This document shows, piece by piece, positions 24,332 to 53,253 of a stretch of DNA of 64,000 nt. Origin of the DNA: Escherichia phage TH12. Where the stretch lies: the sequence record MT446390.1; one strand, written 5' to 3'. Positions within the stretch are counted from its first letter, which is position 1. Each line of letters begins with the position of its first letter. A program made the position numbers and the translations under genes. The notes beneath the pieces were generated by a model that saw nothing but the letters and a program-made list of their open reading frames with translations, was not told where the DNA came from and made no database searches.

Positions 24332-24847
24332 TTATGGCCTCATATAAACATAGTTTCGTAATTGTTGTGCCCATTTGCTCCAATTTCCTACTATAGTTTT
24401 TGTATAAACCTTAGTAAGAGTTTTTTGTACTGGAGCCGGTGGAGGTTCTGCACCAGAGTCACTTCTTGTGCCGCCTGATGAACTTTCTTCTTGGTAGTTA
24501 TAAATCATTTCAACCGTATAACTAAACACTTTACGAAGATTCTGAGGAGCTCTCCACAAATATAACTGTGCGGATTCATCTTTCGGTAAATCATCCCATG
24601 AAGATGCAGTTTTAAAATCATCATTTAATCGATATTTCAATGCATCCGAAGAAAAGCTAAACACACTTTCATATGTTCCATATAAACGATTACCATCTAC
24701 CGTAATGCCTTGTGTCGGTTCATAATCTGTTATATTTATTGACACTAAAGTTTCGGACGTTTCTAGCTGAGGAGTAAAAAGGACGTCAATAGACGCCCCT
24801 TCCATGTCTTCTCCTAAGTCGGTATTTAAAGGAAGTATTTGTGCCAT
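24332..24847 (-). CDS. 5.1: gp5.1-like hypothetical protein
   Basis: 171 aa ORF between genes 5 and 5.4; assigned by position only. Confidence 0.55.
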
Positions 24848-29235: not shown

Positions 29236-29970
29236 ATGGAGCTAATCTTTTTAAGTGGCATCAAACGTAGTGGTAAAGACACTACTGCTGATTACATCAA
29301 TTCAAACTTTAAATCCGTAAAATACCAATTAGCATATCCAATTAAAGACGCTCTAGCAATAGCCTGGGGGCGTAGACATGCCGAAAACCCTGATGTATTC
29401 ACAGAGTTGAAATACGAATACTTTGAAGGCATTGGATACGACCGTGAAACACCATTAAATCTCAATAAGTTGGATGTTATTGAATTATTGGAAGAAGCGC
29501 TAATTTATTTACAAAGTCAATATTTACCAATTAATAATGTTAAAGTATTATCATCGTTAGAAGGTGGATATTCATATCTAGATATTAAACCATATGAAGC
29601 CCTGCGTGAAGCTATAAATAATATCAACGACACATGGTCAATCCGCCGTCTTATGCAAGCCCTCGGTACGGATGTTGTCGTTAATTTATTTGACCGTATG
29701 TATTGGGTTAAGCTTTTTGCATTAAACTATATGGATTATATTGGAAGTGATTTCGATTACTACGTTGTGACCGATACACGCCAAGTCCATGAAATGGAAA
29801 CCGCTAGAGCGATGGGTGCTACAGTTATTCATGTGGTTCGCTCTGGTACGGAATCCACTGATAAACATATTACAGAAGCTGGGTTGCCTATTGAAGAAGG
29901 CGACTTAGTTATTACAAACGACGGCTCGTTAGAAGAGCTTTATTCTAAAATTGAAAAAATCTTAAGGTAA
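29236..29970 (+). CDS. 1: deoxynucleoside monophosphate kinase gp1
   Basis: 244 aa; MELIFLSGIKRSGKDTTADYINSNF... (P-loop) matches T4 gp1. Confidence 0.9.
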   Translation: MELIFLSGIKRSGKDTTADYINSNFKSVKYQLAYPIKDALAIAWGRRHAENPDVFTELKYEYFEGIGYDRETPLNLNKLDVIELLEEALIYLQSQYLPINNVKVLSSLEGGYSYLDIKPYEALREAINNINDTWSIRRLMQALGTDVVVNLFDRMYWVKLFALNYMDYIGSDFDYYVVTDTRQVHEMETARAMGATVIHVVRSGTESTDKHITEAGLPIEEGDLVITNDGSLEELYSKIEKILR

Positions 29971-30673: not shown

Positions 30674-30707
30674 TTTACATAAGGATGATGGCGTGTTACT
30701 ATCATCC
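30674..30707 (+). promoter_or_regulatory. early promoter with stem-loop (PeSL-like cassette)
   Basis: GTTTAC at 30674-30679, TACTAT 17 nt downstream, inverted repeat GGATGAT/ATCATCC flanking the -10. Confidence 0.6.
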
Positions 30708-30736
30708 TATCAAATAAACGACCTCAAGGAAATAAA

Positions 30737-31027: not shown

Positions 31028-31065
31028 GTTTACATGCTAATAGGACTATGTTATAGTAGTCCTAT
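31028..31065 (+). promoter_or_regulatory. early promoter / stem-loop cassette
   Basis: GTTTAC -35; 26-nt palindromic element ATAGGACTATGTTATAGTAGTCCTAT at 31040-31065 containing the -10. Confidence 0.6.
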
Positions 31066-31087
31066 CAAAATTAATTAGGAAAATAAA

Positions 31088-31407: not shown

Positions 31408-31444
31408 GTTTACTTTTAGATAGGGTGGTGATACTATTACCCTA
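31408..31444 (+). promoter_or_regulatory. early promoter / stem-loop cassette
   Basis: GTTTAC, TACTAT, inverted repeat TAGGGT/ACCCTA. Confidence 0.55.
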
Positions 31445-31465
31445 TCAACTACTGAGGAGAATAAA

Positions 31466-37913: not shown

Positions 37914-37950
37914 TTTACAACAAGATAGGGCTATGTTATAGTAGTCCTAT
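37914..37950 (+). promoter_or_regulatory. early promoter / stem-loop cassette
   Basis: GTTTAC -35; element ATAGGGCTATGTTATAGTAGTCCTAT, one mismatch from the 31040 copy. Confidence 0.6.
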
Positions 37951-37970
37951 CAAATTAAATGGAGACAACA

Positions 37971-39204: not shown

Positions 39205-39242
39205 GTTTACACAATTATAGGACTATGTTATAGTAGTCCTAT
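39205..39242 (+). promoter_or_regulatory. early promoter / stem-loop cassette
   Basis: GTTTAC; exact copy of the 26-nt element ATAGGACTATGTTATAGTAGTCCTAT at 39217-39242. Confidence 0.6.
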
Positions 39243-39262
39243 TAAAACATGAGGAGAATATT

Positions 39263-39569: not shown

Positions 39570-40256
39570 ATGAATAGTTCTAAAGTGTTTAATAGTCAAG
39601 CTCGTGCAGTAGGTGGTTTTGCTCATAACGTACAAAATGACCAAATCAAAAATGAACCAATGTTCTTTAACTGTGATTTGAGTTTTGCTTGGGATAACGG
39701 CGGTCCTATTACTCGTAGCTTTATTGCCAATCTCCCAATTGATTGGACTAATCAACATGTTGTATTTGATTCTCGGGTTCATATGCTGATGCCTGGTTGG
39801 TATCCTGCTATTCCTGGATATCACCATGACGATGTTCCTCGCCCTGATATTCCAGTCGGCCAACACTTTATTACTGCAGGACAACCTGACTATGATAACC
39901 CTCGTTACCATTCTGAACATATTCTTGGTCTTGTTAACGCTGACGTGTGTCCTACTCATTTTGCAACAGGAACTGCAGAGTTCAGTCAGATTCCTGATGG
40001 CGAACTTATCTATCGCCAATGGCACAAAGAAGTCCTCGAAAAAATTGAAAAAGGTGAACTAGAGAAATGGGAAGCTCCAGACCGTACTCTTCTTCAGTTT
40101 GATTGGCAAACATGGCACACTGGTTCTCGTGCAATTAGTAATGGATGGCGTTGGTTCGGACGTGTATCTCGTAATACAGACCGAGTTAAAAAGATTACCA
40201 ATGAAATTCGTGTCAATGCCCAAGTTTATCTGGAATTCCCTATGGAAGGCTGGTAA
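39570..40256 (+). CDS. hypothetical protein
   Basis: 228 aa ORF, His/Trp-rich; translationally coupled to upstream gene. Confidence 0.55.
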   Translation: MNSSKVFNSQARAVGGFAHNVQNDQIKNEPMFFNCDLSFAWDNGGPITRSFIANLPIDWTNQHVVFDSRVHMLMPGWYPAIPGYHHDDVPRPDIPVGQHFITAGQPDYDNPRYHSEHILGLVNADVCPTHFATGTAEFSQIPDGELIYRQWHKEVLEKIEKGELEKWEAPDRTLLQFDWQTWHTGSRAISNGWRWFGRVSRNTDRVKKITNEIRVNAQVYLEFPMEGW

Positions 40257-40747
40257 TGATTAACAAAACATATTGGTCTAATATTGACGACGGCAATGAA
40301 GGTATTTCATACTATTCAGTAGATTGGACAGGATGTCCATCCTACTTAGTGAAACGTATTTGTCAAGAATTTAAAATCGACCAGCCAGCAGGTATTATCG
40401 TGAACAGATACATTAATGGATATCAACCTATCGATGAAGTAATACGAACAACTCAAGCTGATCTTGAAAAGTTTTTCAATAAGTGTCAATGGATAACAGG
40501 ATGGATTATATTTGTACCGTCGGTATGGTTTTTTAGTACTAAAGTAAGTGCCTTTGCCATACCAGATATTATCGCTATCTTATTAGCATCTACTATCGTA
40601 AGTATTATTGGTGGTATTATTGGTGGAGGTACTATAGGCATCATTATTAATCTTGTTAAAAGTAGTTTACAGGAACGTAAAGACAAGATAAAGGCCAAGA
40701 ATAATGAAGTTGAACGTTTTATTACCGAATGCAGGAATTTGAGATGA
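40256..40747 (+). CDS. hypothetical membrane protein
   Basis: 163 aa; C-terminal Gly/Ile-rich TM segments. Confidence 0.5.
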   Translation: MINKTYWSNIDDGNEGISYYSVDWTGCPSYLVKRICQEFKIDQPAGIIVNRYINGYQPIDEVIRTTQADLEKFFNKCQWITGWIIFVPSVWFFSTKVSAFAIPDIIAILLASTIVSIIGGIIGGGTIGIIINLVKSSLQERKDKIKAKNNEVERFITECRNLR

Positions 40748-40980
40748 GTATAGCAATTTACATTAAATCAGAATCATGTGATAGTTATCTGTACACATAT
40801 GATAAAGATGTGTCAGAAGAAAAAATCAAAGACGATCTTAATATGGACCTTGATTTGTTCAGTCCTATTGCAGATTACAAACTTGCGGTCTCTAATAGTG
40901 AAAGTCCATCTAAAGAAACGCGTATTGAAGAATTTATGTCCGAATTAATGGCCAAATCATGGGACCGAGATGATGAGTAA
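40729..40980 (+). CDS. small acidic hypothetical protein
   Basis: 83 aa ORF overlapping neighbours. Confidence 0.4.
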   Translation: MQEFEMSIAIYIKSESCDSYLYTYDKDVSEEKIKDDLNMDLDLFSPIADYKLAVSNSESPSKETRIEEFMSELMAKSWDRDDE

Positions 40981-41428
40981 GAAAAATAAAGTGAAAGAAC
41001 TATCAGCCGGTATTATCTTCATGACAAAAGATAAAGAATTATTCATGGGTCGTGTAACTGGTTCTCGTCCTAAAGGTGCATTAGCTCATCGGTGGGATAT
41101 TCCTAAAGGCCGTGTCGAACCTGGCGAATCTCCTATCGAAGCCGCTATTCGTGAATGCGAAGAAGAAACTGGGTTTACACAATATGACCCTGCCTTCCTG
41201 AAAGACCTAGGTGAACATCATTACTCAGATAATAAGAATATTCATCTGTTCCTATATACCATCCCTGTAGAGCACGAGCAATTCAGAAACAGTGTTTGTA
41301 ATTCATATCATACATTCCCGGACGGACGACAGATTCCTGAATTTGATGCATTCGCTTTAATTAAACCTTCTCAATGGGAATATGTAATGGGCAAATCATT
41401 ATATAAGGTGCTCACTACCATCCTATAA
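40970..41428 (+). CDS. nudE: Nudix hydrolase NudE (e.1)
   Basis: 152 aa; Nudix box GRVEPGESPIEAAIRECEEETG; immediately upstream of e as in T4. Confidence 0.85.
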   Translation: MMSKKNKVKELSAGIIFMTKDKELFMGRVTGSRPKGALAHRWDIPKGRVEPGESPIEAAIRECEEETGFTQYDPAFLKDLGEHHYSDNKNIHLFLYTIPVEHEQFRNSVCNSYHTFPDGRQIPEFDAFALIKPSQWEYVMGKSLYKVLTTIL

Positions 41429-41462
41429 GTAATAAATACCTCCTATAAACGTGGGAGGTATT

Positions 41463-41951
41463 ATGAATATATTTGAAATGCTTCGTAATGACGAAGGTCT
41501 TAGACTGACTTTATACAAAGACACTGAAGGCTTTTGGACGATTGGCATAGGCCATTTAGTAACAAAGAACCCGTCTTTAGCCGTAGCTAAAGCTGAACTT
41601 GACAGAATGATCGGTCGTAAATGCAACGGTACAATTACCCTTGATGAGGCTGAAAAGCTATTTAATGAAGACGTCGATAAAGCCGTTCGCGGAATCTTGG
41701 GTAATGCTAAACTTAAACCGGTATATGATTCTTTAGACGCGGTTCGTCGATGTGCATTGGTCAATATGGTCTTCCAAATGGGTGTAGCAGGCGTTGCTGG
41801 TTTTACTAATTCTCTTCGTATGCTTCAACAGAAACGTTGGGATGAAGCGGCAGTAAATCTCGCCCAATCTAAATGGTATCGTCAGACACCTAATCGCGCG
41901 AAACGCGTAATCTCAACATTTAAAACAGGAACTTGGAAAGCGTATATATGA
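41463..41951 (+). CDS. e: endolysin (T4 lysozyme, gene e)
   Basis: Start at internal Met ([32 protein letters not shown]...); near-identical to T4 lysozyme including catalytic E11/D20/T26 context. Confidence 0.95.
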
Positions 41952-42229
41952 AAACATATAGTGAATTTTTATCAGAATCTATTCTTAACGAAGCTACTGA
42001 CACATTTGCAACTAAGCTAGGTGCAGCTTTGGTTGAAGCCGAAAGTCTATTAGCACGTATTTCTGAACTTGCTAGTAAGATAGATACTCGCAAATTTGAA
42101 CGTACCAGCGATATCGCTAAGCTTGAAGCCTTGTTACGTATGTGCGATAAACCGGAAGAAATCGCTAAGAACGGCTCGCTGATGAAACAACGTCTTGAAA
42201 AATATATTTCAGGCGCTTCAGAAAAATAG
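41933..42229 (+). CDS. internal-protein-like protein with capsid targeting sequence
   Basis: 98 aa; N-terminus [18 protein letters not shown]. Confidence 0.6.
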
Positions 42230-42230
42230 T

Positions 42231-42284
42231 GTTTACTTCCTCCAAGGGTTTTGATACTATACATTCATCAACTACTTGGAGGAA
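42231..42284 (+). promoter_or_regulatory. early promoter for denV embedded in a 10-bp inverted repeat that pairs the RBS
   Basis: GTTTAC at 42231-42236, TACTAT at 42255-42260; TTCCTCCAAG (42237-42246) is the exact reverse complement of CTTGGAGGAA (42275-42284). Confidence 0.6.
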
Positions 42285-42287
42285 ATT

Positions 42288-42701
42288 ATGACTCGTATCA
42301 ATTTAACACTTGTTTCTGAACTGACCGATCAACATCTTATGGCTGAGTATCGTGAATTACCACGCGTATTTAGTGCAGTCCGTAAACATGTCCAAAACGG
42401 TAAACGTGTAAAGGATTTTAAAATCTCTCCAACATTTATCTTAGGCACAGGTCACGTAACATTCTTTTACGACAAACTTGAATTTTTACGTTTACGACAA
42501 ATCGAGCTAATCGCTGAATGCTTGAAACGTGGTTTCAAAATCAAGGACACGACAGTCCAGGATATTTCCGACATCCCTGCCGAATTTCGTAATAATTATG
42601 TCCCGTCCGAAGCGTCCGTTGCGATAAGTCAAGCACGCTTAGATGAAAAAATTGCTCAACGTCCTACTTGGTACAAATACTATGGTAAATCAATTTACTA
42701 A
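42288..42701 (+). CDS. denV: endonuclease V, pyrimidine dimer DNA glycosylase (DenV)
   Basis: Start at [28 protein letters not shown]...; near-identical to T4 DenV. Confidence 0.95.
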
Positions 42702-42707
42702 GGAAAA

Positions 42708-42968
42708 ATGAAAATGTATCAAGAATTTATCATTGAAGCAGATGCCAAAGGTCCTAAATTTAAAGTTAAAGCTTTCATTGGTGATGCCGAAGACTTTGGC
42801 TCATTAAAACGTAATGGGTATTCTTTCTTAGGTGGCGATGGTAAAGAAATCAACACCTATGCAAAACGTAGTGAAATTGCTTATGTTGTAGTAAATCCTA
42901 AAGTAGATGTTGACGATATTGGATACGATTTTAACAACTTCGGAATTATTTCTGGCGGTAAAGCTTAA
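42708..42968 (+). CDS. internal-protein-like protein with capsid targeting sequence
   Basis: 86 aa; N-terminus MKMYQEFIIEADAKG. Confidence 0.6.
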   Translation: MKMYQEFIIEADAKGPKFKVKAFIGDAEDFGSLKRNGYSFLGGDGKEINTYAKRSEIAYVVVNPKVDVDDIGYDFNNFGIISGGKA

Positions 42969-43032: not shown

Positions 43033-43335
43033 ATGAAAACATATCAAGAATTTATTACTGAAGCGCGAGTGAGTGCAGGTAAATTAGAAGCCGCTATAAA
43101 TAAAAAGGCCCATTCATTTCATGATTTGTCCGATAAAGACCGTAAGAAACTTGTAAGCCTTTATATTGACAAAGAGCGTATTCTCGCTCTTCCTGGCGCT
43201 AATGAAGGTAAACAGGCCAAGCCTTTGAATGCTGTCGAAAAGAAAATTGATAACTTTGCTTCTAAATTCGGTATGTCTATGGATGACCTTCAGCAAGCGG
43301 CTATCGAAGCAGCTAAAGTAATTAAAGGTAAATAA
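43033..43335 (+). CDS. ipII: internal protein II (IPII)-like, capsid-targeted
   Basis: 100 aa; N-terminus MKTYQEFITEARVSAGKLEAA...; basic. Confidence 0.7.
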   Translation: MKTYQEFITEARVSAGKLEAAINKKAHSFHDLSDKDRKKLVSLYIDKERILALPGANEGKQAKPLNAVEKKIDNFASKFGMSMDDLQQAAIEAAKVIKGK

Positions 43336-43448
43336 CAGTTTACTTTCTCCTAGAATTGTGATAGTATATTCATAATTACTTAGAGGGGTAAATACAGAAA
43401 TGGACAATTCATGCGCCACGGAATGGCCCAACCTAAAAGAGAAACTAA

Positions 43449-45441: not shown

Positions 45442-45491
45442 TTTACTTCTCCTCTAGTTGTGTTACTATAGACTTGTCAACTAGAGGAGAA
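45441..45491 (+). promoter_or_regulatory. early promoter for regB embedded in a 14-bp inverted repeat that pairs the RBS
   Basis: GTTTAC at 45441-45446; TTCTCCTCTAGTTG (45447-45460) is the exact reverse complement of CAACTAGAGGAGAA (45478-45491). Confidence 0.6.
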
Positions 45492-45497
45492 ATCAAA

Positions 45498-45956
45498 ATG
45501 ACTATCAATTCGGAAGTTTTTATCCGCCGTAATAAACTCCGTCGAATCTTTGAAACGGAGTTCCGCAAAATAAATGCCGGTATAAAAGATGCTGCAAAGT
45601 CTCTTGGACTACCAGGCTTTCATATCAAGTATTCTCAACATCTCTTAGATCGTGCCATCCAGAGAGAAATAGATGAGAATTACGTTTTTGAATTATTTCA
45701 TAAAGTAAAAAATCATGTTAAAGAAGTTGCAGAATTTTTATCAATGCCGGCACGTCCAGATGTTGATGAAGATTTTGTCGAAGGTGTCGAATATCGCCCA
45801 GGCCGTTTAGAAATAACTGATGGAAATCTTTGGTTAGGTCTTACAGTTTGTCGCGAAAATCCGGCATTCAAAATGAAGACTCTTCAATGTAGAATGGCTA
45901 TTATTAACAGTAAACGACTACCAGGAAAAGCTTCTAAAGCAGTGATTAAAATCTAG
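45498..45956 (+). CDS. regB: RegB site-specific endoribonuclease
   Basis: Start at MTINSEVFIRRNKLRRIFETEFRKINAG...; near-identical to T4 RegB. Confidence 0.9.
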   Translation: MTINSEVFIRRNKLRRIFETEFRKINAGIKDAAKSLGLPGFHIKYSQHLLDRAIQREIDENYVFELFHKVKNHVKEVAEFLSMPARPDVDEDFVEGVEYRPGRLEITDGNLWLGLTVCRENPAFKMKTLQCRMAIINSKRLPGKASKAVIKI

Positions 45957-48940: not shown

Positions 48941-49120
48941 ATGACACGTAAAGAAAAGATTTCTAAGTTGATGTTTTTGATTGAAGAGTACGCTAATGCG
49001 GTATCTGATTGGGAAAATGCTCATGGTTGCGAAGATGGAGACATCGACATTAACAGGGCTATGAAAAAGATGGCCGACGCTCACACCGAATTGCAAATGT
49101 ATGTTAACGAGATTATGTGA
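48941..49120 (+). CDS. small hypothetical protein
   Basis: Start at ATG 48941 (MTRKEKISKLMFLIEEY...) after RBS AGAGGAGAA. Confidence 0.45.
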   Translation: MTRKEKISKLMFLIEEYANAVSDWENAHGCEDGDIDINRAMKKMADAHTELQMYVNEIM

Positions 49121-49334: not shown

Positions 49335-49372
49335 TTTACATCTTGGTAGGACTATGTTATAGTAGTCCTACC
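49335..49372 (+). promoter_or_regulatory. early promoter / stem-loop cassette
   Basis: GTTTAC; inverted repeat GGTAGGACTA/TAGTCCTACC around TGTTATAG. Confidence 0.6.
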
Positions 49373-49391
49373 AAAACAAACGGAGAACAAA

Positions 49392-52775: not shown

Positions 52776-52907
52776 GCTTATAGGAAGTTCTGAGGTAAGC
52801 CATAAAGATGAATAATCATATGGCTTACCTCAAAGAAGGACACCAGGAACCTACTGAGGGCATAGAAATATTTAAAATAATGATGTACAAATCAAAGAGG
52901 ATATGTT

Positions 52908-53197: not shown

Positions 53198-53231
53198 GTT
53201 TACAAGGTCTATGGTTGTGTTATTATAGACC
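53198..53231 (+). promoter_or_regulatory. early promoter / stem-loop cassette
   Basis: GTTTAC; TATTAT; inverted repeat GGTCTAT/ATAGACC. Confidence 0.55.
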
Positions 53232-53253
53232 TATCAACTACTGGAGGTAAAAC

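Follow-up and report, generated by a model that had tools for sequence, protein, structure and literature searches.

Over the 1.4 kb that surround the denV leader, the sequence shows 100% identity with Shigella phage Shf125875 and with Escherichia phage CCU7, both members of the genus Mosigvirus of the T4-like Straboviridae. The genes around this leader in the window, by which we mean the whole stretch of 64,000 nucleotides that was analysed, are as follows.

40970-41428, + strand: nudE
41463, + strand: true start of the lysozyme gene e
41948-42229, + strand: internal head protein gene upstream of denV (PHROG phrog_3499, E = 2e-46; RefSeq annotation of the identical phage)
42288-42701, + strand: denV, encoding endonuclease V, a pyrimidine-dimer DNA glycosylase of 137 aa (Pfam Pyr_excise, E = 3.5e-14; PHROG phrog_1183, E = 3.5e-62; annotation)
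42708-42968, + strand: second internal head protein gene
43033-43335, + strand: ipII-like gene

In the Mosigvirus of the window denV is flanked on both sides by internal-protein genes. The gene found directly upstream of denV varies between phages: in two of the loci compared (L018 and L020) the lysozyme gene occupies this place, T4 and others have an ipII-like gene there, and the remaining phages have various internal-protein genes. Homology between the phages starts exactly at the GTTTAC that precedes denV, and the TAG stop codon of the upstream internal head protein gene (42227-42229) is separated from the denV promoter by a gap of 1 nt. For the lysozyme gene, RefSeq places the start of e in the identical phage at 41478 (MLRNDEG...); as the T4-like start MNIFEML lies at 41463, this annotation seems to be five codons short.

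The short region between the upstream stop codon and denV contains the elements of a promoter and the two arms of a hairpin over the denV Shine-Dalgarno (SD) sequence.

42231-42236, + strand: -35 element GTTTAC, in the T4 early-promoter form (from the sequence; motif and spacing as at other early-type promoters; kept before denV in T4 and relatives)
42237-42246, + strand: 5' arm UUCCUCCAAG (anti-SD), within the 17-bp promoter spacer (reverse complement of 42275-42284; covaries across phages)
42247-42250, + strand: 5' side of the inner helix, GGUU, which prolongs the stem (MFE and centroid structures)
42252-42260, + strand: extended -10 element, made of TG (42252-42253), A and TACTAT (42255-42260)
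42267, + strand: predicted transcription start, an A 7 nt past the -10 element (from promoter geometry)
42270-42273, + strand: 3' side of the inner helix, AACU (MFE and centroid structures)
42275-42284, + strand: 3' arm CUUGGAGGAA, with the SD GGAGG (42278-42282)

The denV promoter of the window reads GTTTACT-17-TG-A-TACTAT and that of T4 reads GTTTAC-16-TG-A-TACTAT; the -10 hexamer and the TG upstream of it are identical in T4 (GATACTAT), and the extra T is present in the window alone. The -35 hexamer in its E. coli-type register is TTTACT (42232-42237), and the DNA that lies upstream of the -35 element is AGAAAAATAG. T4 early promoters are described (PMC1524935, PMC2988021) as having GTTTAC at -36 to -31, followed by a TGn and a -10 element and preceded by A-rich DNA, and the denV promoter carries the corresponding features, namely GTTTAC, a 16-17 bp spacer, TGn, TAnnnT and A-rich upstream DNA. 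This early-promoter family (GTTTAC-N16/17-TGn-TAnnnT) is represented by about 20 copies on this strand, each ~55 nt before a start codon. A generic sigma-70 scan did not list the denV promoter because it matches 8 of the 12 E. coli consensus positions, and we used a scan for the phage's own early consensus in place of the generic one. A middle promoter was rejected, as TGTTTAC makes a poor MotA box and stands 18 bp from the -10 element, outside the 12 +/- 1 rule. The late promoter TATAAATA was not found on this strand between 33753 and 43095, nor did the hairpin or the DNA just upstream contain a match to it with one mismatch. The T4 counterpart of the predicted start A42267 is the A of CTATCAAC; promoter-proximal stops in early T4 denV RNA have been reported by primer extension, in a figure with an ambiguously worded legend (PMC1702504).

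A preliminary description of this DNA had pointed out that TTCCTCCAAG (42237-42246) and CTTGGAGGAA (42275-42284) are exact reverse complements of each other, with GTTTAC at 42231-42236, TACTAT at 42255-42260 and the denV ATG at 42288-42290, and all of this was confirmed in the sequence. It had also placed the SD inside the 3' arm, which is correct, and 4 nt before the ATG, which is not: GGAGG (42278-42282) stands 5 nt before the ATG, and the end of the 3' arm 3 nt before it. The folded leader consists of a 10-bp outer stem and a 4-bp inner helix (GGUU 42247-42250 with AACU 42270-42273) that leave the -10 hexamer in the apical loop, together with a small 3-bp inner stem in which UGA (42252-42254), holding the TG and A of the promoter, pairs with UCA (42265-42267). 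An inverted-repeat search of the 64 kb recovered this pair (I5; arms 42228-42246 and 42275-42293, 28 nt between them) as one of just 23 inverted pairs at the settings used, most of the others being short palindromes. The longest perfect hairpin in the window lies elsewhere, at 52791-52832, and is a perfect 14-bp inverted repeat (TGAGGTAAGCCATA/TATGGCTTACCTCA) with a 14-nt loop. RNAfold gave -19.8 kcal/mol for 42225-42300 (76 nt; z = -2.9), with 1 of 200 shuffles as stable, and -39.3 kcal/mol with 161 nt of context (z = -4.1), with none of 200 shuffles as stable and the denV hairpin dominant. The 161-nt fold has extra outer helices, 42216-42223/42313-42320 and 42230-42235/42306-42311, through which the upstream gene's end and the -35 region pair with denV codons 7-11 and which, if formed in read-through RNA, would enclose the denV start codon still more tightly. 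A search of the denV leader with the Rfam 15 covariance models gave no real match, the sole one (E = 0.91, opposite strand) being attributable to chance.

We calculated the accessibility of the initiation region as the free energy needed to open positions -16 to +3 in a long RNA (-110 to +40) and in a short RNA (-21 to +40), and we ranked denV among the window's 88 ATG starts that are preceded by an SD and open a frame of 40 aa or more. The opening costs, in kcal/mol, were as follows.

denV: long RNA 13.8, short RNA 2.7, difference 11.1
lysozyme e: long RNA 17.4, short RNA 5.7, difference 11.7
regB: long RNA 14.9, short RNA 1.7 (also given as up to 3.0), difference 13.2

The difference for denV ranks 5th of the 88 (mean 2.0, sd 3.6) and is about equal to that of lysozyme e, the positive control in the same window. 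For the energy of pairing between the SD and upstream sequence, denV comes second of the 88 (-20.3 kcal/mol vs a mean of -9.3, sd 3.75) and regB first. RNA from the predicted start (42267-42330) folds at -2.6 kcal/mol with z = +2.2, all 200 shuffles folding at least as well, and the short-RNA leader of denV, 21 nt in length and without the 5' arm, is predicted to be nearly structure-free. The two largest differences in the window belong to other starts. The highest, 14.5 kcal/mol, was obtained for a start at 24374 (- strand, 112 aa), where the pairing partner of the SD region is located about 50 nt upstream. The second highest, 13.6 kcal/mol, was obtained at 29236 (+ strand, MELIFLSGIKRSGKDTTADY...), where the SD lies in a hairpin formed by CCUCAUA with UAUGAGG just past a TATAAT box. 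The product of the gene at 29236 resembles T4 gp1 at its N-terminus, and the gene is a candidate orthologue of gene 1 (dNMP kinase). The T4 gene 1 RNA has been reported to be almost RegB-resistant (PMC1702504).

The comparison of denV loci covered IMG/VR, T4 and four further phages. In each of the 30 distinct T4-like denV leaders that have a promoter of the GTTTAC type, the SD is sequestered by an arm at or upstream of the predicted start, with long-minus-short differences of 4.4-19.6 kcal/mol (median 10.9). The 5' arm overruns the predicted start by 1 nt in one leader, and in a few leaders with the arm over the -10 element (e.g. L024) the last one to three arm bases lie just past it. The denV leader of Proteus phage Pm5461 (Bragavirus) sequesters its SD likewise, and in 31 out of 31 leaders the 3' arm is the SD, often together with the AUG. 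Two geometries were observed. In the first, found in the window, T4 and 16 others, the arm lies in the spacer straight after the -35 element; in the second, it covers the 3' half of the -10 element and the discriminator, and the 3' arm spans the SD to the AUG. Examples of the arm pairs (5' arm/3' arm) are given below.

Arm in the spacer: window UUCCUCCAAG/CUUGGAGGAA; T4 UCUCCUGUAG/CUACAGGAGA; L010 CUCCGUUUG/CAAACGGAG; L030 UCUCCUGUG/CACAGGAGA
Arm over the -10 element: L024 AUGUCCUCCUA/UAGGAGGACAU; L014 GAUGUCUUCC/GGAGGACAUC; L028 AUAGUAGCCUU/GGAGGCUACUAU

Pairs were counted in gap-free anchored blocks. A direct MAFFT alignment of the leaders (A1) was left out of the counts, its arms being out of register because loop lengths differ; likewise, a first duplex analysis in which the leaders were split at -22 truncated the hairpins over the -10 element and was replaced by full partition-function opening energies. 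The alignment of the spacer-arm class (A2) was anchored on CUCC and GGAG, which fixes four pairs by construction, and its covariation signal comes from the seven flanking pairs: 7 of the 11 pairs change on both sides (34 cells), 89% of the cells are paired vs 39-50% when the partner is slid, and none of 500 shuffles reaches the score. The alignment of the class with the arm over the -10 element (A3) was anchored on the -10 hexamer and GGAG, independently of structure. Here 87.6% of the cells are paired vs 39-58% when slid, six pairs are compensatory, and C-G alternates with U-G at two positions, which indicates pairing of the sense-strand RNA rather than symmetry of the DNA. Swapping the arms between leaders gave the same picture, cognate arms pairing at -15.5 kcal/mol vs -10.3 for non-cognate ones over the 30 leaders, and at -13.6 vs -9.6 kcal/mol over 16 representatives of distinct stem types (p = 1e-5). 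The cognate stem of L018 is just 5 bp long.

On this comparative evidence the denV leader hairpin is real, conserved and under selection. By a rough estimate, a few perfect 10-bp hairpins with loops of up to 40 nt are expected in 64 kb of such composition, and the complementarity between a CUCC-containing spacer and the SD might thus have arisen by chance. The covariation, present in both alignments, rules out chance pairing, and the swap test and the restriction of the hairpin to leaders that lack a terminator argue in the same direction, so that we give this explanation virtually no credence. It is also very improbable that the inverted repeat acts as DNA, either as a protein-binding site or as a recombination site for the shuffling of the internal-protein locus. 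The position of the element, at the junction of the variable internal-protein genes and denV, would suit such a role, and recombination sites are what the promoter/stem-loop elements known as PeSL have been proposed to be (PMC4122927). However, the alternation of U-G with C-G amounts to A-C mismatches on the other strand, and the arm sequences vary freely while complementarity is kept, which fits base pairing and not a conserved protein site. The architecture put forward in the preliminary description, in which a hairpin with the SD as its 3' arm has promoter elements around it and within it, is thus supported by sequence, conservation and computed opening costs.

We infer both the existence and the abundance of upstream RNA that reaches denV from the organisation of the locus and from T4. 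No terminator-like site was predicted on this strand from 40000 to 42288, and with just 1 nt between the upstream stop codon and the promoter, read-through into denV is to be expected. In T4, denV is classed as early RNA and early protein, and the upstream genes e, ipIII and ipII as early RNA and late protein (PMC9697503 supplements). This early-RNA class of e, ipIII and ipII implies that RNA crosses the region upstream of denV early. Consensus late promoters TATAAATA are found in the T4 segment upstream of e only, and late RNA for the abundant internal proteins therefore probably runs on towards denV. Moreover, because denV stands between two internal-protein genes, any RNA serving the gene at 42708 must cross denV.

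We propose that the DNA between the -35 and -10 elements doubles as the template of the anti-SD strand, which would make the denV leader a compact and self-contained early-gene cassette. RNA entering from upstream, through early read-through or on late lysozyme and internal-protein transcripts, would carry both arms, fold and bury the SD, and ribosomes would initiate poorly at denV. Host RNA polymerase acting at the early promoter of the cassette would start RNA inside the loop (predicted +1 at A42267), and this promoter-started RNA, having no 5' arm, would present an open leader and be translated. The synthesis of denV would then be tied to the short period during which early promoters fire, and the gene would be insulated from a highly expressed and often shuffled upstream neighbour. 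The likely benefit would be that a DNA-nicking enzyme is made early, briefly and in limited dose, independently of changeable neighbours. Judging from sequence comparison and folding models, we consider it probable that occlusion of the SD in read-through RNA ties denV translation to its own early promoter.

The stem could have another role. In a PeSL-type promoter/stem-loop its task would be to attenuate or terminate transcription coming from upstream, or to stabilise the upstream mRNA at its 3' end, and the overlap with the SD would be incidental. The PeSL stem-loops of RB49 terminate transcription and are sited between -35 and -10 or over -10 (PMC2839356), the denV cassette sits exactly where inter-phage homology begins, and several early promoters of the window (30674-30720, 31029-31075, 31409-31455, 37914-37960, 39206-39250, 49335-49380 and 53199-53245) bear a strong local hairpin that extends from the spacer to the -10/+1 region and leaves the SD untouched. 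Since so many neighbouring early promoters have hairpins off the SD, part of the denV structure may serve attenuation or recombination. However, no U-run follows the denV stem, where the next bases are AAAUUAUG, and a terminator scan found none at the hairpin. The 3' arm is specifically the SD in 31 out of 31 leaders, in two geometries and with covariation, and in the leaders where denV follows a real terminator the SD is free. As an account of the denV hairpin we find this role unlikely.

The leaders with terminators belong to six denV genes, those of four jumbo phages, Aeromonas phage 31 and Enterobacter phage PF-CE2, in which an intrinsic terminator stands upstream, the SD is free and the long-minus-short difference is -0.1 to 3.8 kcal/mol. 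In the jumbo phages (L025, L027, L032 and L033; 345-378 kb) the terminator lies about 60 nt before denV and its stem includes the -35 TTGAC of the next promoter (for example GGGTTGACTTCGGTCAGCCC + TTTTT + GCTATAAT), so that terminator and promoter use the same bases. Distant denV homologues from marine and other phages (40-47% identity) showed no comparable structure. There appear to be two alternative ways to isolate denV, one that stops the upstream RNA and one that lets it pass in an untranslatable form.

The pairing might also shield the GGAG of the SD from the RegB endoribonuclease rather than block ribosomes. In vivo the T4 denV SD resists RegB, an enzyme that structure inhibits (PMC1702504), and the same design is present in the leader of regB itself. 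However, Durand et al. turned denV into a good RegB substrate by altering just 7 nt 3' of GGAG (PMC1702504), and the resistance of denV is therefore explained by sequence. In addition, the RNA predicted to be translated starts in the loop, without the protective arm, and protection of an untranslatable RNA would serve no evident purpose. We regard shielding as very unlikely, only marginally less so than a role of the repeat as DNA. The same authors saw no structure change around GGAG in a short T4 denV RNA made in vitro (Durand et al. 2006) and classed T4 denV among the 'unstructured' RegB-resistant RNAs (PMC1702504). The RNA that they probed may have lacked the 5' arm, and 'unstructured' is consistent with the short, promoter-initiated form. 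That the 3' partner is in every case the SD, and that the 5' partner, bar a few last bases in some leaders, lies upstream of the start, is explained neither by shielding nor by any other rival; occlusion in read-through RNA remains our preferred reading.

The preliminary description had suggested that this is a general strategy, on the grounds that regB shows it too, and our analysis bears this out: the regB leader shares the denV design, with covariation, both in this phage and in T4 and other relatives. The regB leader occupies 45442-45500 and the gene 45498-45956 (Pfam REGB_T4). GTTTAC is followed there by UUCUCCUCUAGUUG, which pairs with CAACUAGAGGAGAA, and the spacer sequence TTCTCCTCTAGTTG pairs with CAACTAGAGGAGAA over the SD to give 14 bp, a stronger stem than that of denV. 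The corresponding arms are UUUUCCUCUUGACUG/CAGUUAAGAGGAGAA in T4 and CUCCUCUUUAUG/CAUAAAGAGGAG or UCUCCUGUAAGU/ACUUACAGGAGA in other relatives; the regB of the most distant relative compared shows no sequestration and has a terminator instead. Weaker versions of the denV design precede small ORFs at 48941, 63094 and 34532. The SD-free promoter hairpins mentioned above, such as TTGGTAGGACTA (49343-49354) with TAGTCCTACCAA (49363-49374), would form in read-through RNA only and resemble the PeSL elements that Arbiol 2010 and Comeau 2014 describe. We also observed near-identical hairpin modules (…CTAGAATTGTGATAGTATATTCACAATT…) upstream of both ipIII and ipII in T4 (L002), at 43339-43400 of the window and in the denV leader of L020. 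The recurrence of such modules before different genes is consistent with promoter/hairpin cassettes that are moved whole by recombination. We see about an even chance that the T-even phages contain a general class of self-insulating early cassettes, kin to PeSL, in which core promoter DNA supplies the anti-SD strand, translation occurs only from the gene's own promoter and the two geometries are interchangeable.

Both denV and regB encode nucleases. If the proposed mechanism holds, their synthesis would be limited to a brief early burst whatever gene recombination puts upstream, which would give a concrete reason for a constant denV and regB output despite the swapping of neighbouring internal-protein genes. 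Occlusion of ribosome-binding sites (RBS) in T4 would then extend from the late-delayed genes e and I-TevI to early genes, with the opposite timing, and the 'free' spacer of a promoter could be selected as an RNA element. For the annotation and engineering of T4-like therapeutic phages, cargo placed upstream of such a cassette should not drive the downstream gene, and deletion of the promoter would bare the SD to read-through translation while losing the gene's own early transcripts. The physics is classical; what stands out is its use at early genes, the double role of promoter DNA and the choice of two interchangeable geometries. Compensatory mutations could be designed directly from so strong a comparative signal.

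Sequestered initiation regions of T4-type phages have been described for soc, 49, I-TevI/II/III, Aeh1 mobE and segB (PMC3014915). As predicted for denV, an intramolecular helix on the SD and/or AUG silences the read-through RNA of these genes; for e and I-TevI, the occlusion delays translation until late-promoter transcripts are made (PMC3014915). Neither denV nor regB is in the list of sequestered genes of this 2010 review (PMC3014915). The literature covered contained no account of occlusion in the denV or regB leader, and it is possible, if somewhat doubtful, that the T4 denV hairpin was noted before in older literature.

Like denV, PeSL cassettes sit at variable-gene junctions and have AT-rich DNA upstream of an early promoter, together with a stem-loop, SD and ATG (PMC2839356, PMC4122927), and their stem-loops, like that of denV, lie between -35 and -10 or over -10. 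According to the figure legends, the PeSL stem-loops are G/C-rich terminators or attenuators within or just upstream of the promoter and apart from the SD (PMC2839356, PMC4122927). denV shares this layout, with its early promoter, stem-loop, SD and ATG at a variable junction, and departs from PeSL in that the SD itself, which lies downstream of the predicted start, forms the 3' arm, and no U-run is present. The terminator-plus-promoter units of the jumbo and distant T4-like phages likewise shield denV from transcription that arrives from upstream and give it a promoter of its own; in those phages an intrinsic terminator stops the RNA and the SD is free, whereas in the window it is translation that would be silenced.

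The closest parallel is the T4 lysozyme gene, in which the SD lies in a helix in RNA started upstream, and RNA from an internal promoter lacks the 5' strand and is translated (McPheeters et al. 1986; PMC3014915). The e hairpin is conserved in close relatives of T4 (PMC3014915), and the classic hairpin is kept in the e leader of the window (41430-41478), where ATACCTCC (41436-41443) pairs with GGAGGTAT (41455-41462). Late-promoter-like sequences, AATAAATA and TATAAACG, are found around its 5' arm. The preliminary description had likened denV to this case, and the likeness holds in that RBS access is predicted to differ by transcript class; it does not extend to the promoter, which is early and not late. 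Both leaders bury the SD in upstream RNA and have a promoter inside the hairpin, and at denV a stable helix on the SD is accompanied by a promoter whose predicted start removes the 5' strand. The internal promoters of e are late (TATAAATA, gp55-dependent) and its translation is late only. At denV the temporal logic would be the opposite because the internal promoter is of the early sigma-70 type; the promoter's own spacer (or -10 element) encodes the arm, and translation would come only from early-promoter RNA. The mechanism is a known one, and what differs at denV is that the promoter is early, that core promoter DNA encodes the inhibitory strand and that the timing would be reversed.
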